Assembly: GCF_017813355.1 (NCBI RefSeq) | Contig: NZ_JAGIYZ010000006.1 | Location: forward strand, 1 to 24,000 | Reading direction: 5' to 3' | Source of the DNA: Roseomonas nitratireducens | GTDB taxonomy: Bacteria; Pseudomonadota; Alphaproteobacteria; Acetobacterales; Acetobacteraceae | Length of the DNA: 24,000 nt | Shown: positions 2-23,755 of the stretch, piece after piece | How the letters are laid out: each line of letters opens with the position of its first letter | How positions within the stretch are numbered: the stretch's first letter is position 1 | Translations under genes and position numbers: made by a program | The notes under the pieces: model-generated | Told to the model about the DNA's origin: nothing | The model's input: the letters and a program-made list of their open reading frames with translations, nothing else | Databases searched by the model: none

Positions 2-1060
2 GCGCCCGTCGTCACGCCCGCGCCCGCCGCCGGGCCCGCGGCAGGGGAACGCGGCCCGTCCTCGGCCACCGAGGCCGCCGCGGCGGCGCGGCGGGAGGAA
101 CAGCGCATCCTGTCGACCGACCCGACGCTCGCGCGCGTCGGCGGCGTGCTGACGCCGCGCGGCGCGCTGTCCGTCGAACCCACCCTCGAATACGGCTATG
201 GCGAGAACACCCAGGCGACGGTGAACGGCTTCTCGATCGTGCCGGGCATCACCTTCGGCACGGTCGACATCCGGCAGAACACGCAGCGCGCGACGACGGC
301 CTCGGTCACGCTCCGCTACGGCATCACCGACCGCTTCGAGATCAACACCCGCATCCCCTACGTGTTCCGCAACGACACGATCGAGACCGGCCCGGCCGAC
401 GTGAACGCGAGCCCGATCCTGATCAGCCCGCGCGGCAACGGCATCGGCGACATCGAGTTCGGCGCCTCCTACCAGATCAACGCCGGCATGAACGATTGGC
501 CGATCTTCATCGCCAACCTCCGCGTCAAGTCGACGACCGGCCGCAGCCCCTTCGAGGTGCCGATCTACACGACGAACGACCCGCAGGGCGGCTTCATCCG
601 CGGGCTCGAGCGCGAGCTGCCGACGGGCACCGGCTTCTGGTCGGTCGAACCCGGCGTGACCGTCGCCTGGGCGTCCGACCCGGCGGTGTTCTTCGGCGGC
701 ATCCGCTACATCTGGAACATCGCGGATACGGTCGACCTGCAGAATCCGTCCGGTGGTCCCGCGACGCGCACGCGCCTCGACCCCGGCGACGCGATCGGCG
801 TGAACTTCGGCGTGGGCTTCGCGATGAACGAGCGCACCTCGATCAGCCTTGGCTACGAGCATGTCTTCGTCATGCGGTCGAGCCAGGAGGGGCGTGCCAT
901 CGCGGGGTCCACGGCCGATATCGGGACCTTCAACTTCGGCCTCGCCTATCGCGTCTCCGACAGCGTCAGCGTCAATCTCGGCGTGGGCATCGGCGTGACG
1001 GATTCGGCGCCGGATGCGCGGATCATCCTGCGCGTGCCGGTGCGCTTCAACCTGATCTGA
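2..1060 (+). CDS. Outer-membrane beta-barrel protein, 5'-partial (FapF-like / MetA-phenol-degradation-type transporter barrel, tentative)
   Basis: The frame is open from the window edge. In-frame residues ...EAAAAARREEQRILSTDPTLARVGG precede the GTG at 146, so the true start is off-window. The sequence has an amphipathic beta-strand pattern (TLEYGYG, ASVTLRYGITDRFEINTRIPYVFRND, GIGDIEFGASYQIN, SVNLGVGIGV) and a terminal strand RVPVRFNLI. The family call is from memory of PF13557-like barrels and was not searched. Confidence 0.7.
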   Translation, partial: APVVTPAPAAGPAAGERGPSSATEAAAAARREEQRILSTDPTLARVGGVLTPRGALSVEPTLEYGYGENTQATVNGFSIVPGITFGTVDIRQNTQRATTASVTLRYGITDRFEINTRIPYVFRNDTIETGPADVNASPILISPRGNGIGDIEFGASYQINAGMNDWPIFIANLRVKSTTGRSPFEVPIYTTNDPQGGFIRGLERELPTGTGFWSVEPGVTVAWASDPAVFFGGIRYIWNIADTVDLQNPSGGPATRTRLDPGDAIGVNFGVGFAMNERTSISLGYEHVFVMRSSQEGRAIAGSTADIGTFNFGLAYRVSDSVSVNLGVGIGVTDSAPDARIILRVPVRFNLI

Positions 1061-1175: not shown

Positions 1176-1478
1176 CTTTACGCCGTGAACACGCGCCGTG
1201 TGTGTCGGCGTTAACGATTCGCCGGGCGCCGCTTCATTCGCTGCTCGCGCAGGCCAACGGCCGCGCGGCGGAAAACCTCGCATCGCACGACGTCCCGCAA
1301 ACGCCCGCGCCGTGGCACGCGCGTTGCTCTCTCCGACATGCGCGAAGAAGAGTGTTGGGGAAGGAAGTCGGTGCATGGCTCGCCAACGCGTCTGGCGACG
1401 CCTTCCTCCCGCTCCGCAGTGCGCAACCCCGCCGCGACGCCGCGGCGGCACGTGACAACACGGGACGAGGAGAGAGAG

Positions 1479-2474
1479 ATGCGTGCACTTCTTCTTGCGG
1501 GTGTCGGCATCGTCGCCTTCGGCGGCGCCGCCATGGCCGAAGGCGACCGCGGCAACCACCATCGACGCTACCAGCCCGCGATCATGGACCACTACGCGGC
1601 GGCGCTCGGCGTCAACATCGGCGAGGTCCGGGGCAATAGCTCCACCACCGGCCGTGGCCAGGCCGTCGGCGTCACCACGACCGGCAGCTTCGGCGGCGCG
1701 CGCGGCGTGATGAACGTGAACCAGAACGCCGGCGCGAACAGCGCCCAGCAGAACGCCGTCGCCATCGCCTACATCGAAGGCTGCGACTGCCGGGTCGAGT
1801 TCAAGTATGGCGACGGCAACGCCAACGCGGTCGCGGGCAATGGCGGCCAGGTCGTCGGCAACAACAGCGCGAACGGCGAATACTCGCGCCGCCACCACCA
1901 CGGCGACGACGGCACCAGCGCCAGCGCGACGCTCGCCGGCAGCTTCGGCAGCGCCACCGGCATCGCCCAGGTCAACCAGAATGCCGGCGCCAACAGCCTG
2001 CAACAGAACGCCACGGCGGTTGCCTACATCGACAACGTGTCCGGCACCCGCAGGCAGGACCGCGACGCCTGGGCCATCGCCGGCAATGCCGGCCGCGTGA
2101 CAGGTTCGGGCAACAGCTCGGACGACTACCGCCACCGCGCGAACGGGTCGATCGAGGGCGCCTTCGCCGGCTTCACCGGCGTCGCCAACGTGAACCAGAA
2201 CGTCGGCGCGAACAGCCTGCAGCAGAACGCCGCGGCGCTGTCGGCGGTGGAGTACTGCAACTGCGCCACGCGCGACCTGTCCACGGTCGTGGCGGCCGCG
2301 GCCAATCTCGGCTCCGTCTCCTACAACCGCGCCGATGCGGATCGCGGCGCCGCCTTCGCGACGATCGGCGGTTCGTTCAACGGCATCACCGGCATCACGC
2401 AGGTCAACCAGAACGCCGGCGCGAACAGCCTGATGCAGAACTCCGTGGCGGTCGGCGCGGTCTACAACCGCTGA
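1479..2474 (+). CDS. Secreted Q/N/G/A-rich repeat protein, putative major fibre (amyloid-like) subunit
   Basis: The ATG at 1479 is preceded by GAGGAGAGAGAG. The Sec signal peptide is MRALLLAGVGIVAFGGAAMA|EGD. There are four copies of a 30-aa core, G-[SA]-F-x-G-x-x-G-[VI]-x-x-V-N-Q-N-x-G-A-N-S-x-x-Q-N-x-x-A. The upstream extension to 1338 in the ORF track has no signal peptide and is Arg-rich. Confidence 0.85.
   Translation: MRALLLAGVGIVAFGGAAMAEGDRGNHHRRYQPAIMDHYAAALGVNIGEVRGNSSTTGRGQAVGVTTTGSFGGARGVMNVNQNAGANSAQQNAVAIAYIEGCDCRVEFKYGDGNANAVAGNGGQVVGNNSANGEYSRRHHHGDDGTSASATLAGSFGSATGIAQVNQNAGANSLQQNATAVAYIDNVSGTRRQDRDAWAIAGNAGRVTGSGNSSDDYRHRANGSIEGAFAGFTGVANVNQNVGANSLQQNAAALSAVEYCNCATRDLSTVVAAAANLGSVSYNRADADRGAAFATIGGSFNGITGITQVNQNAGANSLMQNSVAVGAVYNR
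1683..2459 (+). repeat. Four in-frame 90-nt (30-codon) imperfect coding repeats
   Basis: The cores lie at 1683-1772, 1938-2027, 2157-2246 and 2370-2459. Their sequences are GSFGGARGVMNVNQNAGANSAQQNAVAIAY, GSFGSATGIAQVNQNAGANSLQQNATAVAY, GAFAGFTGVANVNQNVGANSLQQNAAALSA and GSFNGITGITQVNQNAGANSLMQNSVAVGA. They are spaced 85, 73 and 71 codons apart. Confidence 0.9.
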
Positions 2475-2488
2475 TCCTGTCCTGACGG

Positions 2489-2519
2489 CGCCGGCGGCCC
2501 GCCCAATGGGCCGCCGGCG
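2489..2519 (+). terminator. Strong intra-cluster hairpin (candidate attenuator/partial terminator)
   Basis: CGCCGGCGGCCC (2489-2500), loop GCCCAAT, GGGCCGCCGGCG (2508-2519). This is a perfect 12-bp G/C stem starting 15 nt after the stop of the repeat-protein gene. No U-tract follows. Confidence 0.45.
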
Positions 2520-2551
2520 TCCCCCTGCCCAAGCAGAACGAGGACGACGCC

Positions 2552-2884
2552 ATGAAGATCGCGACCATCGTCACCGCAGCGCTGCTCGGCACGGCGGCCT
2601 CGGCGCAAACCGTCCATGCTTCGGACCCCGCCGCGCTGTTCGAACGCCTCACCCCCGTGGGGCAGGGCGAACTGGCCCGTTCCTCGGGCCGCGCCGGCTT
2701 CGACCAGGATTCGGCGAACCTCGCCAATGTGCACGGCAACCATGTCGGGTCGCACAGCGTCACCGGCAGCAACAGCATCTCGGGCTCCCTCAGCGGCAAT
2801 GCGGGCGTGACCACCGTGTTCCAGAACACGGGCAACAACAGCGTGTTCCAGTCCGCGACATCCATCACGATCAACATGCGCTGA
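2552..2884 (+). CDS. Small secreted protein with a single copy of the fibre repeat (putative minor subunit/nucleator)
   Basis: GAGGA lies 9 nt upstream of the ATG. The signal peptide is MKIATIVTAALLGTAASA|QT. The C-terminal core at 2783-2872, GSLSGNAGVTTVFQNTGNNSVFQSATSITI, aligns with the 30-aa repeat of the upstream gene. Both proteins end 3-5 residues after the last repeat (..VYNR* and ..NMR*). Confidence 0.8.
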   Translation: MKIATIVTAALLGTAASAQTVHASDPAALFERLTPVGQGELARSSGRAGFDQDSANLANVHGNHVGSHSVTGSNSISGSLSGNAGVTTVFQNTGNNSVFQSATSITINMR

Positions 2885-2893
2885 GACGCGCCG

Positions 2894-3670
2894 ATGCTGC
2901 CGCCGCGTATCGCCGTGCTGATGCTCCCCGCGCTGCTCGCCGCCTGCGCGGCCGGGCGCGGCGACGCCACGCTGCCGGTCGAACCGATGCGCGCGGGGCA
3001 GGTGGAGCTCTCCCTGCCGGACCTCGACACCGGCGGCGCCAACCTCTCCGTTCCGGTGCGTAGCGTGCTCGCCCGCCGCTTCGCGCGCACGATCAAGCAG
3101 CGCTTCGACTTCTCCTGCGGCTCGGCCGCACTCGCGACGCTGCTGACCTTCCACTACGGCATGCCGACAGGGGAGGAGGCGGTGCTGCGCGACATGATCG
3201 AGCATGGCGACGTGGAGCGCATCCGCAGCGCGGGCTTCTCGCTGCTCGACATGCAGTCCTATCTGGCGCGGCGCGGGCTGCGGTCCAACGGCTACCGCCT
3301 GCCGCTCGACAGGCTGGCGGAAGTGCGCGTGCCGGCGATCGCGCTGATCGACACGAACGGCTATCGCCATTTCGTCGTCGTGCGCGGCGTCACCGCCGAC
3401 CGCGTGCTCATCGGCGATCCGAACCTCGGCACGCGCACTATGCCGCGCGTGCGGTTCGAGGAGGCCTGGAACGGCGTCCTGTTCGTCATCCTCGACCGCC
3501 CGGACCTGGGCCAGGCGAGCTTCGGCCTGGCCGAGGATTGGGGCGTGCGGTCGCGCGCGCCCGGCCTGCTCGTGCGCGACCAGATGGACCGGGGCATATC
3601 CGGCCTCGGCATGCCGGCGCCGCTCGTCCTCAATTCGGGCGTGCCGCCGACGCGTGGCTTTCTTCCCTAA
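2894..3670 (+). CDS. Lipoprotein peptidase C39-family cysteine protease (FapD-like position)
   Basis: A lipobox is present: LPALLAAC. C39 hallmarks are intact. These are the oxyanion Gln and catalytic Cys in KQRFDFSCGSAALATLL, His in GYRHFVVVRG, and Asp in LIGDP. No ABC-transporter domain is fused. Confidence 0.85.
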   Translation: MLPPRIAVLMLPALLAACAAGRGDATLPVEPMRAGQVELSLPDLDTGGANLSVPVRSVLARRFARTIKQRFDFSCGSAALATLLTFHYGMPTGEEAVLRDMIEHGDVERIRSAGFSLLDMQSYLARRGLRSNGYRLPLDRLAEVRVPAIALIDTNGYRHFVVVRGVTADRVLIGDPNLGTRTMPRVRFEEAWNGVLFVILDRPDLGQASFGLAEDWGVRSRAPGLLVRDQMDRGISGLGMPAPLVLNSGVPPTRGFLP

Positions 3671-3701
3671 CGCCTGCCTTGAAGGGAGAGGAGAAGCTGT
3701 C

Positions 3702-4313
3702 ATGACCCGAGGGACCGTGTTCCAGGCGTCGCTTCTCGCCATCACGCTCGCCGGCGGCGCCGCCATGGCGGCCGATGCGCCGGGGCGGCGCGACATGGCC
3801 GATGCCTACGCCCGCGCGCTCGGCCTGGACATCGGCGGGCAGGCGGAAGCGCTGGACATCGTGGCCGCCGCGGTGCCCGAGGAGGAACTCGGCGACATGC
3901 GCGGCGGCTTCGCGCTGCCCGGCGGCCTGTCCGTCGCCTTCGGCTTCGACATCGAGACGCGACTCGGCGGGCAGGTTGTGCAGCGCCTGACCCTGCCGGC
4001 CTCGGTCCTCGGCCCCGGGGGGCGCATGGAGGCGATCCGCATCGTCGAGGGCAGCGCGACGCGGCTCGCCGATCCCGCCGCCGGCCCCGCGGTGGCCGAG
4101 GGCGTCTTCAACGGCGGCGCGACGCGCATCGTGACGCAGGCGGGCATCGGAACCGTCCTCGGCGTCGTGCAGAACAGCCGGGACGGGCAGGTCGTGCAGC
4201 AGCGGTCGAACCTGCAGGTGGACATCTCCGGCATGGGGCGGCTGCTCGACGCGACGTCGAACCGTCGCGTCATGGACCAGGCGCTGCCGCGGCGCGGCGG
4301 GTGGGCACGGTGA
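3702..4313 (+). CDS. Secreted protein of unknown function (cluster accessory)
   Basis: The ATG at 3702 is preceded by GGGAGAGGAGAAG. The signal peptide is MTRGTVFQASLLAITLAGGAAMA|AD. I recognise no family. Confidence 0.7.
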   Translation: MTRGTVFQASLLAITLAGGAAMAADAPGRRDMADAYARALGLDIGGQAEALDIVAAAVPEEELGDMRGGFALPGGLSVAFGFDIETRLGGQVVQRLTLPASVLGPGGRMEAIRIVEGSATRLADPAAGPAVAEGVFNGGATRIVTQAGIGTVLGVVQNSRDGQVVQQRSNLQVDISGMGRLLDATSNRRVMDQALPRRGGWAR

Positions 4314-4612
4314 GGCGCGTCCTTCTCGCGTCGCTGCTGGTCGCCGCGGCGCTGGCCGCCGCCGCGGGCGGCGCGCGCGCCTTCGAGCCCGAGCCCGGGG
4401 CGATCGCGCGCATCGGCGGGCTCGAGGTGCTGAAGCCGCTCGATGCGCAGGATCTCGGCCGCCAGCGCGGCGGGCGGCTGCCCGCGGTGACGCCCGGGAT
4501 GCAGGCGCCCGCGCCGATGCTGCGGCTGTGGGACGAGATCGGCCGGCCGACCCGCCCGCAGGACTCCGGTTCCCAGGGCGTCGTGACTTCGACCCATCGC
4601 GGCGCGCGCTGA
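4310..4612 (+). CDS. Small secreted protein of unknown function
   Basis: The GTG at 4310 overlaps the upstream stop (GTGA), which suggests translational coupling. An alternative GTG lies at 4301. The signal peptide is VRRVLLASLLVAAALAAAAGGARA|FEP. Confidence 0.55.
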   Translation: MRRVLLASLLVAAALAAAAGGARAFEPEPGAIARIGGLEVLKPLDAQDLGRQRGGRLPAVTPGMQAPAPMLRLWDEIGRPTRPQDSGSQGVVTSTHRGAR

Positions 4613-4640: not shown

Positions 4641-5093
4641 ATGAGGATGTCCGCGACGCTCGCACTCGGCCTGCTGGGCCTGCTCGCCGCCGGCTGCGCC
4701 CAGCCGGGACCGGAGACGGTCGCCGCCCCCGCGCGGCTCGAGCCGGAAGTCACGGGTGGCCAGCGGATGAGCGGCGAGGAGTTCCGCGCGGCGGTCTTCG
4801 GCAACACGCTCGACCGCCGCCTGCCGAACGGTGCGCGGCTGACGATGCATGTCGCGGCGGACGGGTCGCAGCGGCTGCGCCTGACGGCGCCGGGCGGCCA
4901 GCGTGGGGCCGATCGTGGCCGGATCGAGATCCGCGGCAACGAGATTTGCTCCTCATGGGAACGGATCGACCAGGGCCAGCCGACCTGCTTCGCCTATTTC
5001 CGCCTGGGCGCCTCGCTCGTCGCGATCGACCTCGCGGGGCAGATCGAGCCGACTCGCTTCGAGGTGCTGCGCGGCAATCCGGAACGGATCTGA
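4641..5093 (+). CDS. Lipoprotein (possibly DUF995-like), last gene of the same-strand cluster
   Basis: AGGAGGAAG lies upstream of the ATG. The lipobox is LLGLLAAGC. Conserved-looking Trp/Cys positions occur in IRGNEICSSWERIDQGQPTCFAYF. The family guess is from memory. Confidence 0.7.
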   Translation: MRMSATLALGLLGLLAAGCAQPGPETVAAPARLEPEVTGGQRMSGEEFRAAVFGNTLDRRLPNGARLTMHVAADGSQRLRLTAPGGQRGADRGRIEIRGNEICSSWERIDQGQPTCFAYFRLGASLVAIDLAGQIEPTRFEVLRGNPERI

Positions 5094-6682: not shown

Positions 6683-6756
6683 TGGCTGGGGGACCTGGAT
6701 TCGAACCAAGGCTGCCCGGGTCAGAGCCGGGAGTTCTACCGCTAAACTATCCCCCA
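6683..6756 (-). tRNA. tRNA-Gln (anticodon CUG)
   Basis: The reverse complement folds as a cloverleaf: TGGGGGA TA GTTT-AGCGGTA-GAAC T CCCGG-CTCTGAC-CCGGG CAGC CTTGG-TTCGAAT-CCAGG TCCCCCA G CCA. U1:A72 and G73 are typical of tRNA-Gln, and the CCA end is encoded. Confidence 0.95.
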
Positions 6757-19466: not shown

Positions 19467-20723
19467 ATGTTGACGGACGCAGCACTCAAGTGCCTGAAAC
19501 CAAAAGCCAAAATGTACAAGGTGACCGATCGTGACGGCATGTATGTGCGCGTCGCGCCGACAGGCGGCATCTCGTTCAGGCTCGACTACCGGCTGAACGG
19601 CAGGCGGGAGACCGTCCATCTCGGCAAGTATGCCCGAGATGGGATCTCACTCGCCCGGGCGCGCGAGCTGTGCCTGGACGCGAAACGGATGATCGCCGAG
19701 GGGCGGTCCCCCGCCATAGAGAAGCAGCGGGAGAAGCGCCGGATCAAGGAGGCTAAGAGCTTCGGCGAGTTCGGCGAGAAGTGGCTGACGGGCGCCCCGA
19801 TGGCCGACAGCACACGAGCCATGCGCCGCGCGATCTTCGAGCGTGAACTCAAGCCCGTCTGGCGAAACCGTTTGCTGACCGAGATCACGCCTGACGACCT
19901 GCGCGCCCACTGCGCCAAGATCGTCGAACGGGGCGCGCCGGCGACGGCCATCCATGTGCGGGATATCCTGAAGCAGATCTACGCCTTCGCAATTCTCCAC
20001 GGCGAAAAGGTCGCGAACCCGGCCGATGACGTTGGTCCTGCCTCGATCGCCACCTTTACGCCGAAGGATAGGGCGCTGTCGCCGACCGAGATCCGCATCA
20101 TGCTCAAGCAGCTCGAGCATGTCGCGACGCTGCCGACGATCCGTCTCGGCATGAAGCTCTACCTCCTCACCATGGTCCGGAAGAGCGAATTGCAGGACGC
20201 GGTCTGGGATGAGGTGGATTTCGAGAACGCCGTCTGGACGATCCCGAAGGAGCGCATGAAGCGGTCGAAGCCGCACAATGTCTACCTGTGCCGGCAGACC
20301 CTCGACATCATGATTGCGCTCAAGACCTGCGCCGGCAATTCAAGGTATCTGCTGCCGTCCCGCTACGATGCGGATGCGCCGATGTCGCGGGCGACCTTCA
20401 ACCGGGTCACCTACGCTGTCGTCGAACAGGCCAAGAAGGAGGGGCTGCCACTGGAGCCTTTCACCGTGCATGACCTGCGCCGCACGGGCTCGACGCTGCT
20501 CAATGAGCTGGGCTTCAACCGCGACTGGATCGAAAAGTGCCTGGCGCACGAGGACGGGCGTTCATCACGCGGCGTCTACAACAAGGCTGAATATGAGGTT
20601 CAGCGTCGCCACATGATGCAGGAATGGGCTGACACCGTCGATGCCTGGGTCGAGGGCCGGAAGTATGTTCCGACGCTGCTGCCGACAGCCATGCCGTCTA
20701 TCGCGCTTGATCCTGCCCTTTGA
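19467..20723 (+). CDS. int: Tyrosine recombinase / phage P4-type integrase with N-terminal arm-binding (DUF4102) domain
   Basis: GAGGAGG lies upstream. LTDAALKCLKPKAKMYKVTDRDGMYVRVAPTGGISFRLDYR is the arm-binding domain. HDLRRTGSTLL..LAH..RGVYNKAEY carries the catalytic R, H-x-x-R and Y. Confidence 0.95.
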   Translation: MLTDAALKCLKPKAKMYKVTDRDGMYVRVAPTGGISFRLDYRLNGRRETVHLGKYARDGISLARARELCLDAKRMIAEGRSPAIEKQREKRRIKEAKSFGEFGEKWLTGAPMADSTRAMRRAIFERELKPVWRNRLLTEITPDDLRAHCAKIVERGAPATAIHVRDILKQIYAFAILHGEKVANPADDVGPASIATFTPKDRALSPTEIRIMLKQLEHVATLPTIRLGMKLYLLTMVRKSELQDAVWDEVDFENAVWTIPKERMKRSKPHNVYLCRQTLDIMIALKTCAGNSRYLLPSRYDADAPMSRATFNRVTYAVVEQAKKEGLPLEPFTVHDLRRTGSTLLNELGFNRDWIEKCLAHEDGRSSRGVYNKAEYEVQRRHMMQEWADTVDAWVEGRKYVPTLLPTAMPSIALDPAL

Positions 20724-20973
20724 CCGGGCGGGACTTGCGCTTGGTGACGTCGGGATGCTGTGCGCGAGGGATTGGCTTCGCGCGCCGCGCCAGCAACCAA
20801 GCGTGGACCTCGGCGAGGTCCCAGACGATGCAGCGCGGCGACAGCGCGAAGCGGCGTGGGAATTCGCCGCGCTGCTCCATCTCGTAGATTGTGCTGTCGG
20901 CTAGGGGCACCATCTCGCGCAGTTGGTGCCGCCGGATTGTCTTCCTGATCTCCAAAGGCTCGCGGTGACCCAT
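20698..20973 (-). CDS. AlpA/Xis-family helix-turn-helix protein (putative excisionase/regulator)
   Basis: The ATG at 20973 is preceded by TAAGGAG with a 7-nt spacer. LREMVPLADSTIYEMEQRGEFPRRFALSPRCIVWDLAEVHAWL matches the AlpA pattern. The track's 151-aa form was rejected. Confidence 0.85.
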   Translation of the reverse strand: MGHREPLEIRKTIRRHQLREMVPLADSTIYEMEQRGEFPRRFALSPRCIVWDLAEVHAWLLARRAKPIPRAQHPDVTKRKSRPVKGQDQAR

Positions 20974-21354
20974 ACCCAATCTCCTTAGCGGCTGTCGCTG
21001 GCGATTGAGAACGATAGGTGCCGATGCCGGAAGTCCCTCCCGAGTGGCGTGCGGCAATTTCGGGCTCTGGCGTAGAAAACGGCGGGTCATTTTCAGTCCT
21101 GACAGCGCGGCCGGACATCCGTCAGCCCACAGAATCTGCACGACTCGCCGCACGCGTTCCGCGCCGTAATTGCGCTGTTCAGATCACGCACCATTTACTG
21201 CTTTCACCGGCGAGATGCGATCCAGAAGTCCGCTAGCGACGTAGCAACAGTCGAATGTGTGACACCTAAGGATTTCGTGGGCGGCGGTAGCGAGGAGACG
21301 GAGAAGACCCATAATCTGATCGGAACAGTTCTCGGGGGCTGACGGGGCTACGTT

Positions 21355-21370
21355 TGCAAAGACCTTTGCA
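21355..21370. promoter_or_regulatory. Palindrome TGCAAAG-AC-CTTTGCA, candidate LysR operator
   Basis: Perfect 7-bp inverted arms end 16 nt upstream of the lysR GTG start at 21386. The palindrome is embedded in cgTTTGCAAAGACCTTTGCAtc. Confidence 0.4.
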
Positions 21371-21385
21371 TCATGGGGAACCATC

Positions 21386-22384
21386 GTGCCGAGATCGAAG
21401 ATCGAGCTACGCCATGTGCGTTACATCATCGCTGCTGCGGAAAGCGGCAGCTTCCGGCGTGCGGCGCAAGATCTCGGCGTCGAGCAGTCGGCGATCAGCC
21501 GCCGCATCCGGGATGTCGAGGATGAGATCGGCGCACAGCTGTTCCGCCGTCATACTGCCGGCGTCGACCTGACAGACATCGGCAAACAATTTCTGAATCA
21601 GGCCGCCCCTGGGGCGCGCCAGATCGGATCGGCGCTCTACGGCGCAAGAACGGTGGCGAACAGAGGACGGCATCTTCGGATCGGCGTGTTCGGGCCTCTG
21701 ACCATGGGCTTTCTGTCTGAGCTCTTCGGGGCCTTTCGGGGTGACCGCCCGGGGGTCAAGCTGCGGTTCAGCGAGGGCAGCTGTCCCGAACTCATCGCGG
21801 CCGTGCGGCGAGGGCAGCTTGATGTCGGTGTCGTCGCCGAAGCATCGCCCGGGAAGGGCTTTGACGTGACGCATTTGTGGGCTGAGCCCGTGTACGTGGC
21901 ATTGCCGGACGGCGACCCACTCGCCGATCAGAAGGCGCTCCGGTGGAATGACCTGCGTGATCGGCACTTTGTGGTGACTGATTTACCGACCGGCGATTTC
22001 GCGAAGGGTTACCTGATGCGAAACCTCCAGACTTCGACCGGAGACCTCCAGATCGAGCAATTGTCCGTCACTCGGGAATCTCTGATGCAGATCGTCGCGC
22101 ATGGGGACGGCGTCACCATCGCAGGCAGCGCGCATGTCCGTCACGGACTGCCAGGCATTGCTTTTCGCCGGATCGAGGATGCTGTTCTTCGCTATGGTGC
22201 TGTCCACCCGCGAGGGGAGCTCCATCGGAACCTCGAGCGCCTGCTGGCGCTGGCAAAGTCTTTCTCGGAGCGAGATGACGCTTGGTTCGCCCGGCAACGG
22301 CTCATGCGCCCTGAGCATCGGCGCGTGCCGCACGTTGACTCCCATCGCGGCGCGCGCGGGCGAACCCCCGATCGGTTGCAATGA
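21386..22384 (+). CDS. LysR-family transcriptional regulator (ICE-borne)
   Basis: LRHVRYIIAAAESGSFRRAAQDLGVEQSAISRRIRDVEDEIGAQLFRR is the N-terminal winged HTH. A periplasmic-binding-like effector domain follows. The start is GTG. The last ~28 codons overlap the convergent DUF2274 gene, so the functional C-terminus may be shorter in related copies. Confidence 0.88.
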   Translation: MPRSKIELRHVRYIIAAAESGSFRRAAQDLGVEQSAISRRIRDVEDEIGAQLFRRHTAGVDLTDIGKQFLNQAAPGARQIGSALYGARTVANRGRHLRIGVFGPLTMGFLSELFGAFRGDRPGVKLRFSEGSCPELIAAVRRGQLDVGVVAEASPGKGFDVTHLWAEPVYVALPDGDPLADQKALRWNDLRDRHFVVTDLPTGDFAKGYLMRNLQTSTGDLQIEQLSVTRESLMQIVAHGDGVTIAGSAHVRHGLPGIAFRRIEDAVLRYGAVHPRGELHRNLERLLALAKSFSERDDAWFARQRLMRPEHRRVPHVDSHRGARGRTPDRLQ

Positions 22385-22556
22385 AGCGCTCGAGCATGGG
22401 CACGATCAGCTTGGTCGGGTCGCCGATGGTCTGGCCTTGTTCGCGGCCGAGTGCTGCGGCGTAGGCGACAAGGTCGCGATGCAGTGGCGCAGGGAGTTCA
22501 ATCGTCACCTTCACCGGCTTGTCGTCGATGATCGGGCCGAGCTTCAGCTTGGTCAT
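22302..22556 (-). CDS. DUF2274-family protein (conserved tail gene of trb-type T4SS operons)
   Basis: MTKLKLGPIIDDKPVKVTIELPAPLHRDLVAYAAALG.. is present. The ATG at 22556 overlaps the trbI stop (TGATG). Confidence 0.8.
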   Translation of the reverse strand: MTKLKLGPIIDDKPVKVTIELPAPLHRDLVAYAAALGREQGQTIGDPTKLIVPMLERFIATDRGFARARRDGSQRAARADAQGA

Positions 22557-23755
22557 CACAACCCTCCATAAGGTTCGAGCACGAGGTCGCGGGTGACGAT
22601 GACGCGCACAGGGAACCCCGGTCTGATCGTCAGGGTTGGCGCGACATTGAGTTGCCGACGGATGATTTGCTGGCCTGCGTCGTTGATGGTGTCCTGCCCG
22701 CCGTTGCGGATCGCCCGGAGCAGCCGATCCTGATCGTCAACGGCGAGTTCGGCGCCGACTGACAGCAGTGTCGACAGGCCGGCAGCCTTGGCGAGATCCC
22801 ACCAATGATAGTCGACGCCATCCTGAAGACCCGCATAGCCTTGCGCGTCGGCTCCGGGTTGACGTTCCAGGACAATCGAACGGCCGTTCGGCAGAATGAG
22901 CCGCTTCCAGACCAGCAGCACCCGGCGCTGACCGAAGCCGACGTCGTTGCTGTACTCGCCGATGAGCCGCGTGCCCTGCGGGACGAGCAGGATGCGCCCG
23001 GTGGGGCTGTCGTAGACATGCTCCGTGACTTGCGCGGTGATCTGGCCCGGAAGGTCGGATCGGATGCCGGTGATGAGGGCCGCGGCGATGACGGCGCCAG
23101 TCTGAAGCACATAGGGCGATGCCGGAGCCATCACGCGATCGGGCGAGACGGTGCGGCGGTCCACGCCCGCATTCAGGAATGCGAGCTGGCGATCCTGCGC
23201 CGTTGGTGCGCTTGGCTGGCCCGGAAGGCCCAGACCGGCGAGGCTCGGGCTGCCCGGTCCGCCAGCTGTCGCAATCGGAGCTGCGGCGCGCGCCTCCGTC
23301 TGGAAGAAGACGCGGCTCGTTCGGGCAGCTTCTTCTTCCGCGCGCCTGCGCTGCTCAACCGGATCGACGGCGGGCGCTGCCGCCATCGGCGGCGTGACGG
23401 GCTGGCCACGATTCTGCGCATCGAGGATGGGGCGCCCCAGATCCCCAGGAAGCGGAGGCCCAAGCACCGGACCGGTATAATCGCGTGGCAGGCCGGCGAG
23501 CCCGTCCGCGGTTCGCCGGTTCTGCGTGGAGTAAAGCTCCTCACTGCCATGGCCAATACTGCGCGTCTGAAGCGCATAGATGAGCGCGCCACCGACCCCA
23601 AGGGCGGCGACGAGACTGATACCGCCCAGCACCTTTCTCGACAGTCGGGTGACCCGGGGCGGTTCGGCGCGCAGCCGCATTGGCGCAGCGGCGTCGCCGG
23701 GCTGTGTGCCGACCAGCGGTGCGTTGGTTTCGTTGGACGCGTCGCGCTCGCTCAT
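22556..23755 (-). CDS. trbI: Conjugal transfer protein TrbI (VirB10 family)
   Basis: The N-terminal transmembrane segment is LGGISLVAALGVGGALIYAL, followed by a Pro-rich linker. The C-terminal VirB10 domain reads LPGQITAQVTEHVYDS.TG..LLVPQGTRLIGEY...VLLVW.RLILPNG. Confidence 0.92.
   Translation of the reverse strand: MSERDASNETNAPLVGTQPGDAAAPMRLRAEPPRVTRLSRKVLGGISLVAALGVGGALIYALQTRSIGHGSEELYSTQNRRTADGLAGLPRDYTGPVLGPPLPGDLGRPILDAQNRGQPVTPPMAAAPAVDPVEQRRRAEEEAARTSRVFFQTEARAAAPIATAGGPGSPSLAGLGLPGQPSAPTAQDRQLAFLNAGVDRRTVSPDRVMAPASPYVLQTGAVIAAALITGIRSDLPGQITAQVTEHVYDSPTGRILLVPQGTRLIGEYSNDVGFGQRRVLLVWKRLILPNGRSIVLERQPGADAQGYAGLQDGVDYHWWDLAKAAGLSTLLSVGAELAVDDQDRLLRAIRNGGQDTINDAGQQIIRRQLNVAPTLTIRPGFPVRVIVTRDLVLEPYGGL

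Follow-up and report, generated by a model that had tools for sequence, protein, structure and literature searches.

A single-unit repeat protein with a double-glycine-type leader in a Fap-related gene cluster of Neoroseomonas nitratireducens

What does a protein with a single copy of a repeat do beside a neighbor that carries four? The question is raised by the start of contig NZ_JAGIYZ010000006.1 of Neoroseomonas nitratireducens (Roseomonas sp. PWR1), where a gene for a large protein of 331 amino acids (aa) with four repeats is followed by a gene for a small protein with one, which we call S. Both products are annotated as hypothetical in this organism. We analyzed positions 1 to 24,000 of the forward strand, and this whole stretch of 24,000 nucleotides (nt) is referred to as the window. 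A first-pass annotation had taken the two proteins as a major and a minor subunit sharing a 30-aa repeat, comparable to CsgA/CsgB and FapC/FapB. With confidence only slightly above even, we favor the reading that the locus encodes an alphaproteobacterial variant of Fap-type functional-amyloid secretion and assembly, in which S would be a minor subunit of a single layer, licensed by a protease, with the task of priming or anchoring polymerization of the large protein.

The five repeat cores, four in the large protein and one in S, translate in frame exactly as the first-pass annotation had quoted them (Table 1), and its quotations of the two CxC motifs and of the C termini (..AVYNR and ..TINMR, each followed by the stop) were equally exact. 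At the DNA level, the large gene contains four copies of 97 nt with 66-75% identity at spacings of 255, 219, and 213 nt. A hidden Markov model (HMM) of 31 residues, made from 322 repeats out of 82 homologues, gave each copy in the large protein a score of 49-58 bits. When this model was run against 1141 six-frame open reading frames (ORFs), drawn from the window plus five related loci, S was the sole other match below an expect value (E) of 0.05, and S was found in every locus tested (E 9e-6 to 0.02), indicating that the likeness is not due to chance. Profile comparison by hhalign confirmed the proposed homology of the pair, aligning residues 53-105 of S with residues 200-254 of the large protein (probability 95.7%, E 8.5e-9). 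Because this alignment runs over 53 columns, S contains one complete three-stranded repeat unit that extends beyond the 30-aa core. The 30-aa repeat is therefore real as a shared core but is only the conserved part of a true unit of ~53-85 residues with three strands, of which the large protein has four (~66-77 aa each).

We then characterized S as a family in its own right. A profile made from 13 S sequences matched 971 representatives of 50%-identity clusters at E <= 1e-3. Among the best 150 matches, 120 were small proteins of ~100-180 aa, most of them covered over nearly their full length, and the other 30 were multirepeat proteins of up to 1653 aa that were matched in up to 19 stretches. 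The members that we sampled were from Burkholderiales, Pinirhizobacter, and metagenomes, and all were labelled "hypothetical protein." No model in Pfam or NCBIfam matched S, ten orthologues of S and X (the protein encoded after the peptidase) found no relevant family in NCBIfam at E <= 10, and the 120 small members found neither a relevant curated family nor a FapB model in Pfam and NCBIfam. The S unit of the window scored 51.9 bits on an S-family core HMM made without it versus 23.9 bits on the large-repeat HMM; the repeats of the large protein scored the opposite way, higher on the large-repeat HMM than on the S-family HMM. More generally, S-type and cargo-type units gave cross-scores of 17-27 bits versus self-scores of 52-65 bits. 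This split in scores indicates that S belongs by orthology to an old family and did not arise recently by copying of its neighbor's repeat. Conservation within S is highest in the repeat unit, where five columns are invariant and others nearly so among the 120 members. S appears to represent a previously unnamed family, and its single-layer architecture appears to be new.

The association of S with the large protein is strict. Scanning one genome per species gave 25 loci, all in the Acetobacteraceae (Roseomonas/Neoroseomonas, Caldovatus, Acidiphilium), the Stellaceae, or Acidithiobacillus, and the window brought the sample to 26. As had been anticipated for a functional pair, the S gene is co-conserved with the large gene and lies directly 3' of it in all 26 genomes, and the sequence large-S-peptidase-X (C-S-D-X) is likewise kept in 26/26. 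The gene order is F-C-S-D-X-Y-Z in the window and EBP-C-S-D-X-Y-Z-F elsewhere, where F is the barrel, C the large protein, D the peptidase, and EBP an enhancer-binding protein. Twelve of the 26 genomes encode Y (the window and 11 of the 25 scanned loci), and Z matched no Pfam or NCBIfam model. S-like genes also lie between a cargo gene and a C39 peptidase gene in Cupriavidus metallidurans, Photobacterium, and Croceicoccus.

Between its Sec signal and its repeat unit, S contains a leader with the pattern V-S-x2-E-L-x3-R-G-G/R, which is the most conserved segment of the family after the unit. The canonical double-glycine leader is LSxxELxxIxGG. Counted from the cleavage site that this consensus implies, position -12 is V, L, or I in 113 of the 120 family members, S is the commonest residue at -11, E or D occupies -8 in 72/120, L occupies -7 in 117/120, R occupies -3 in 90/120, and positions -2 and -1 are G or A (119/120) and R, G, or K (89/120), respectively. 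The spacing of the S-family leader agrees with the consensus. X and Y have leaders as well (Table 1), and weak comparisons related the S leader to that of Y (E 9e-5) and, with an alignment of Aeromonas FapE, to the FapE leader (E 1.3e-4). X aligned to the same FapE alignment over 40 N-terminal columns that include the leader and the next block (hhalign, E 4e-4, probability 34%), and the repeat cores of S and X were also related (E 3e-5). The corresponding motif in Aeromonas FapE is GELAHLRGR. The leader of S thus resembles an N-terminal motif of FapE that FapB is not described as having. In NCBIfam, X of Photobacterium matched FapE at 5e-3 and X of the window had no match; a search for homologues of Aeromonas FapE returned Aeromonas proteins only, so that no broad FapE profile could be made.

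The gene after S encodes a stand-alone peptidase of 258 aa that matched Pfam Peptidase_C39 (4e-20) and NCBIfam FapD (5e-46) and FilB (2e-31), and its catalytic Cys, His, and Asp were in register when it was aligned to the double-glycine protease domain 6MPZ. In Pseudomonas, the catalytic Cys of FapD is needed for secretion, FapE lacks approximately its first 70 residues in vivo, and the FapD substrate has remained unknown since Fap proteins lack canonical C39 sequences, for which lv-x-GG-kag-y-ga was quoted as the consensus (Rouse et al. 2017). From the C39 spacing of the three leaders together with the N-terminal loss of FapE, we infer, as the obvious explanation, that S, X, and Y are putative substrates of the adjacent C39 peptidase. 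Separately, the peptidase has a lipobox-like start in the window (2894-2960) and in the L001 and L004 orthologues (LLAAC, LLAGC, and LSAC), and in these bacteria the FapD-like peptidase may be anchored as a lipoprotein instead of being soluble in the periplasm.

The large protein belongs to a known family. The precomputed Pfam assignment PF27129 ("FapBC") covers it and all 82 homologues, and NCBIfam FapB and FapC matched it at 9e-6 and 4e-5, far under their equivalog cut-offs. Our local Pfam scan, which used a copy older than the FapBC family, gave no match for the large protein or S, and phmmer against PDB sequences returned only a spurious kinesin match and did not recover FapC. AlphaFold2 predicted an all-beta monomer with a mean predicted local distance difference test score (pLDDT) of 79 and a predicted template modeling score (pTM) of 0.76. 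The register of the four repeats is kept in orthologues, with invariant columns present in all four, as the first-pass annotation had supposed. Its claim that CxC motifs alternate was also borne out: of 62 homologues with four repeats, 57 have them after repeats 1 and 3 and never after 2 or 4. Homologues with seven repeats have a Cys pair behind every second repeat, and those with three repeats have one pair. The spacing within the pairs varies (CxC, CxxC, CxxxC, CxxxxC), at times inside one protein. This variability and the positions of the pairs speak for local disulfides, which would probably pin the turn behind each second layer, and against both a fixed metal site and disulfides that link one motif to another.

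Two further points of the first-pass annotation needed correction. It knew of no comparable Cys feature in curli or Fap subunits; FapC of P. fluorescens and P. aeruginosa already has a C-terminal Cys-X-X-Cys that was suggested to form intermolecular disulfides (PMC3684753). It had also regarded His-rich linkers as characteristic; among homologues there is no His in the repeat cores, and linkers average 2.5% His, leaving the His-rich linkers as a local trait and not a conserved family feature. We also dropped a link between Cys loss and acidophily, since Acidiphilium has lost the pairs but Acidithiobacillus retains them. As a separate observation on this clade, the primary copy of the large protein in the Acidiphilium type lacks both CxC motifs, and these loci contain another FapBC-like gene, which is transcribed divergently and has a long insert rich in Gly, Ser, and Thr (L032 3810-5243, L033 4039-5235, and L034 3992-5077; minus strand).

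The remaining component with clear Fap kinship is the barrel, which matched NCBIfam FapF at E 1e-49 (under the equivalog cut-off), FilC at 9e-21, and Pfam Phenol_MetA_deg at 1e-9. By phmmer, it aligned with the FapF crystal structure 5O67 over residues 52-348 (E 7.5e-38), with the LPTG motif aligned. An N-terminal coiled-coil-like segment, cut off in the window, was seen by eye in the barrel orthologues of L001, L003, and L004. Judged by these scores, the cluster is a divergent relative of Fap and not an orthologous fap operon. The comparison with Fap in the first-pass annotation holds insofar as FapF and FapD homologues adjoin the pair and the large protein falls in FapBC, and does not hold for S, which is no orthologue of FapB or CsgB, having one unit rather than three and matching no family model.

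Much of the Pseudomonas fapABCDEF system is shared: a homologous barrel, a periplasmic C39 peptidase, a FapBC-family major subunit with N/Q/G/A-rich imperfect repeats and paired Cys, a minor protein paralogous to those repeats, and, more tentatively, a FapE-like protein behind the peptidase whose N-terminal part is likely removed. The cluster differs in having four units in the large protein versus three, two CxC motifs at alternate units versus one C-terminal CxxC, and a one-unit S with a double-glycine-type leader instead of a three-repeat FapB. It also contains the extra proteins Y and Z and has the order (EBP)-C-S-D-X-Y-Z with F on either side rather than ABCDEF. No gene for a three-repeat FapB was found in the cluster, and no protein of the cluster matched FapA in NCBIfam. 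The hosts also differ, being Acetobacteraceae, Stellaceae, and Acidithiobacillia; a 2013 survey reported Fap in Beta-, Gamma-, and Deltaproteobacteria only, and in the literature that we searched, no paper paired a fap operon with Alphaproteobacteria. A related cluster of Acidithiobacillia, represented in our sample by L035-L037, has already been named Fap, and its FapF and FapD were seen by proteomics (PMC10853474).

Three other systems offer partial parallels. Curli (CsgA/CsgB with CsgG/E/F) likewise pairs a multirepeat beta-solenoid major subunit with a paralogous minor one and exports both unfolded via a dedicated outer-membrane channel. However, there is no sequence kinship (none of the seven proteins matched a Curlin repeat or Csg family in Pfam or NCBIfam), the channel is of another type, curli has no peptidase, and CsgB has five repeats and no cleavable pro-leader. 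In double-glycine systems with C39 ATP-binding cassette (ABC) transporters (class II bacteriocins and ComC; LahT and ComA), the peptidase aligns with ours including the catalytic residues, and the leaders of S, X, and Y resemble the consensus in the spacing of hydrophobic and acidic positions before a G-G/A/R pair. Here, however, the peptidase would be free in the periplasm, possibly lipid anchored, and not a cytoplasmic domain of an ABC exporter, S, X, and Y have a Sec signal before the leader, position -1 is often Arg, and the cargo is a structural repeat unit rather than a bacteriocin or pheromone. In the Fil system of Acinetobacter (FilA-F), a putative pilus system, FilB and FilC are akin to the peptidase and the barrel, although these matches are weaker than those to FapD and FapF, FilA lacks a Fap-type repeat, and the Acinetobacter locus has no S-like gene.

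Two regulatory elements bear on the relative amounts of the large protein and S. The promoter element TGGCAC-N5-TTGC has its sole exact match in the window before the large gene, and an identical sigma-54 element lies 98-188 nt 5' of the large gene in 14 of the 26 loci (0.03 expected per 430 nt). A gene for a sigma-54 enhancer-binding protein adjoins many of the loci. These elements suggest sigma-54 control of a Fap-type cluster, and we found nothing relevant in the literature on sigma-54 control of fap. Past the stop codon of the large gene lies a hairpin with a minimum free energy of -45.3 kcal/mol (z -3.8). At this post-stop site, 26 of 28 loci have an uninterrupted hairpin of 11 bp or more, versus 9 of 560 random windows; a metric that used runs of opening brackets in the predicted structures was too permissive (25% of random windows passed) and was replaced by this count of uninterrupted stems. 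Hairpin sequences differ between loci, T runs follow some of them, and compensatory changes were seen in 4 of 14 pairs, within one clade. The conserved hairpin fits a need for the first gene's product in large excess and hence a putative major/minor stoichiometry. Elsewhere, a sigma-54-like -24/-12 element lies just 5' of fapB in the canonical-type fap operon of Aeromonas (L007 5125-5139), and a gene for a sigma-54 enhancer-binding protein lies behind the Photobacterium cluster (L009 7403-8755).

In the model that we favor, a sigma-54 promoter would drive the operon, and the hairpin past the first gene would keep the 331-aa protein far more abundant than the products of the genes behind it. 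The large protein would be the major fiber subunit, its four three-stranded units forming stacked beta-solenoid layers that join end to end outside the cell, probably with the turn after every second layer stapled by a local disulfide. S would be a minor subunit of exactly one layer, made as a pre-pro-protein with a Sec signal and then a double-glycine-type leader. The periplasmic FapD-like C39 peptidase would take off this leader, and probably those of X and Y, and leader removal would license export via the FapF-like barrel. At the cell surface, S and X would then give a template edge for stacking of the major subunit, with S acting as primer or anchor. The data show the kinship of the parts, the single unit of S, its conserved leader motif, the strict synteny, the promoter, and the hairpin; peptidase cleavage, amyloid assembly, and priming are inferences from them.

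Several points weigh against this model. The system is known here from sequence and models, and all NCBIfam Fap matches are far under the curated cut-offs (e.g., 25 versus 190 bits) and do not mark equivalogs. With the diverged canonical fap operon of Aeromonas as the comparison, in which FapB, C, D, E, and F are all recognized, hhalign gave no significant alignment of the S family to the single FapB, FapC, or FapE sequences (FapB probability 4.7%), and S had no detectable kinship to FapB, nor to FapE past the leader. The S-family leader departs from canonical C39 substrates in that -1 is R more often than G and -4 is polar, and the S motif of the window has one extra residue (GRAG). An AlphaFold2 model of S alone was uninformative (pLDDT 54). 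Foldseek placed the FapC fibril 9u4u first among PDB matches to the model of the large protein, but this match to the solved fibril was not significant (E 0.02, template modeling score 0.14-0.27), and the large protein could instead act as a beta-helical adhesin in monomeric form. Finally, the data do not tell a primer from a cap.

Three other explanations of S were considered. It is possible, though unlikely, that S is a primer of secretion rather than a structural nucleator, its leader targeting the FapF channel, C39 cleavage opening or activating that channel, and S itself having no lasting part in the fiber. Rouse et al. assign an initiating role of this kind to FapE, which they propose to be acted on by FapD, and the S leader resembles those of X and Aeromonas FapE in the weak comparisons above. 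Moreover, S-like genes also occur beside cargo that has just one C-terminal repeat and would seem to have less need of a classical nucleator. However, the five invariant columns of the 120 members fall in the repeat unit, where conservation is strongest, which argues for selection on a templating surface and not on a targeting peptide alone, and X already supplies a FapE-like component in the operon. A quite improbable alternative places S at the growing end of the fiber as a cap or terminator, where a far edge of TVFQNTGNNSVFQ and not VNQNAGANSLQQN would block further addition and set fiber length. The separation of S-type from cargo-type units into distinct classes would suit such a role. 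So would the lower abundance that S would have relative to the large protein, should the hairpin act as a transcription attenuator. In curli and Fap, however, the minor paralogues known to date are described as nucleators, and length control does not explain why S is conserved beside single-repeat cargo.

We give least credence to the explanation in which the large protein is a nonpolymerizing beta-helical surface adhesin and S a periplasmic edge-capping chaperone that, like FapA or CsgC, would keep it from aggregating too early. UniRef names homologues "Adhesin" or "Heme utilization protein," AlphaFold2 folds the monomer alone, and no FapA homologue was detected. Against this explanation, S ends in a repeat unit at its extreme C terminus, as exported proteins do, and has the same type of leader as the FapE-like protein. 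In the only system studied so far, moreover, homologues of FapF and FapD serve amyloid export exclusively.

A broader proposal is more tentative, and we hold it at somewhat less than even confidence: S would represent a widespread family of single-layer "primers" whose pro-leader is removed in the periplasm by a FapD-type C39 peptidase, so that nucleation would be proteolytically licensed and ELxxxRG(G/R) would be the FapD site. Approximately a thousand 50%-identity clusters match the S profile in Alpha-, Beta-, and Gammaproteobacteria and Acidithiobacillia, some of them multirepeat proteins. If the proposal is true, this leader, which S shares with FapE, would be the long-sought substrate site of FapD, an enzyme whose catalytic Cys has been known since 2013-2017 to be essential for secretion while a substrate was lacking. 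The variant described here offers candidate cleavage sites: the published view is that Fap proteins are without canonical C39 recognition, whereas three neighboring proteins here have canonically spaced leaders. As a minimal, 60-residue, one-layer version of a fiber subunit, S would be a very small model substrate to test and a natural single-layer protein for studying templating in beta-solenoid amyloids. The findings also extend Fap-type machinery to the Acetobacteraceae and their relatives and to cargo with a single C-terminal repeat. The Fap system itself, the placement of the large protein in Pfam FapBC, and the naming of the Acidithiobacillia cluster as Fap are already known; the S family, its leader, the single-layer architecture, the alphaproteobacterial distribution, and the sigma-54 and hairpin control are apparently new.

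Some observations on related loci deserve mention. Cargo proteins in related systems have a long low-complexity region, Gly rich or Asp/Asn/Ser rich, and a single Fap-type repeat at the extreme C terminus (Cupriavidus, L006 4713-6248; Croceicoccus, L008 5423-6430; Photobacterium, L009 4114-4710 and 5266-5841), and those of Photobacterium have an adjacent CC pair. Judging from this arrangement, a single C-terminal unit may suffice for export or assembly. One metagenome contig (L005 8001-17659) contains two complete systems in tandem, with large subunits of 552 aa (7-8 repeats) and 875 aa (11 repeats), each with S, C39, and X genes of its own behind it. In the window, the large protein, S, X, and Y all have a basic last residue shortly past a beta-strand (..YNR, ..NMR, ..WAR, and ..GAR, ending at 2474, 2884, 4313, and 4612), and Arg, His, or Lys is C terminal in most orthologues of the alphaproteobacterial loci. 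A strict C-terminal Arg signal was considered and dropped, as members of the wider S family end in Q, P, R, H, or K.

Table 1. Positions of the features of the Fap-related cluster in the window
Feature	Position (nt)	Strand	Remarks
FapF-like outer-membrane beta-barrel transporter	2-1060	+	N terminus lost at window start
Sigma-54 type -24/-12 promoter element TGGCACgcgcgTTGC	1313-1327	+	166 nt before ATG of large gene
Large (putative major) subunit, 331 aa	1479-2474	+	Sec signal aa 1-20; four repeat units
Repeat cores of large protein	1683-1772, 1938-2027, 2157-2246, 2370-2459	+	In frame within ORF 1479-2474
CxC motif (CDC)	1782-1790	+	Turn behind repeat unit 1; residues 102-104 of large protein
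CxC motif (CNC)	2256-2264	+	Turn behind repeat unit 3; residues 260-262 of large protein
Hairpin, 15 bp, G+C rich	2487-2521	+	Directly 3' of stop of large gene; putative intercistronic attenuator or mRNA stabilizer
Small protein S, 110 aa	2552-2884	+	Sec signal ~aa 1-19/23, leader, one repeat unit
S leader motif VGQGELARSSGRAG	2657-2698	+	aa 36-49
Complete repeat unit of S	2708-2881	+	aa 53-110
Repeat core of S	2783-2872	+	In frame within ORF 2552-2884
FapD-like C39 cysteine peptidase	2894-3670	+	N-terminal signal/lipobox (LLAAC); Pfam, NCBIfam, 6MPZ alignment
Catalytic Cys in SCGSAA	3113-3130	+	
Catalytic His in YRHFVV	3362-3379	+	
Catalytic Asp in IGDPN	3410-3424	+	
Protein X, FapE-like	3699-4313	+	Sec signal, leader, N-terminal conserved block, degenerate repeat near C terminus
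X leader EELGDMRGG, followed by F	3885-3911	+	aa 63-71; double-glycine end at residue 70
Protein Y, 103 aa	4301-4612	+	Sec signal, leader, conserved RLWDE motif
Y leader ..DLGRQRGG, followed by R	4451-4477	+	
Protein Z, 150 aa, predicted lipoprotein (LLAAGC)	4641-5093	+	Co-conserved in alphaproteobacterial loci

Outside the cluster, the G+C content falls to 0.60-0.64 at 19467-23755, compared with ~0.70-0.75 elsewhere in the window, and this block includes genes for a tyrosine integrase (19467-20723) and, on the minus strand, for a TrbI conjugation protein (22556-23755). It is probably an integrative conjugative element that is not linked to the Fap-type cluster. A tRNA-Gln (CTG) gene lies on the minus strand at 6683-6756, beneath several of the spurious long ORFs of this high-G+C region.

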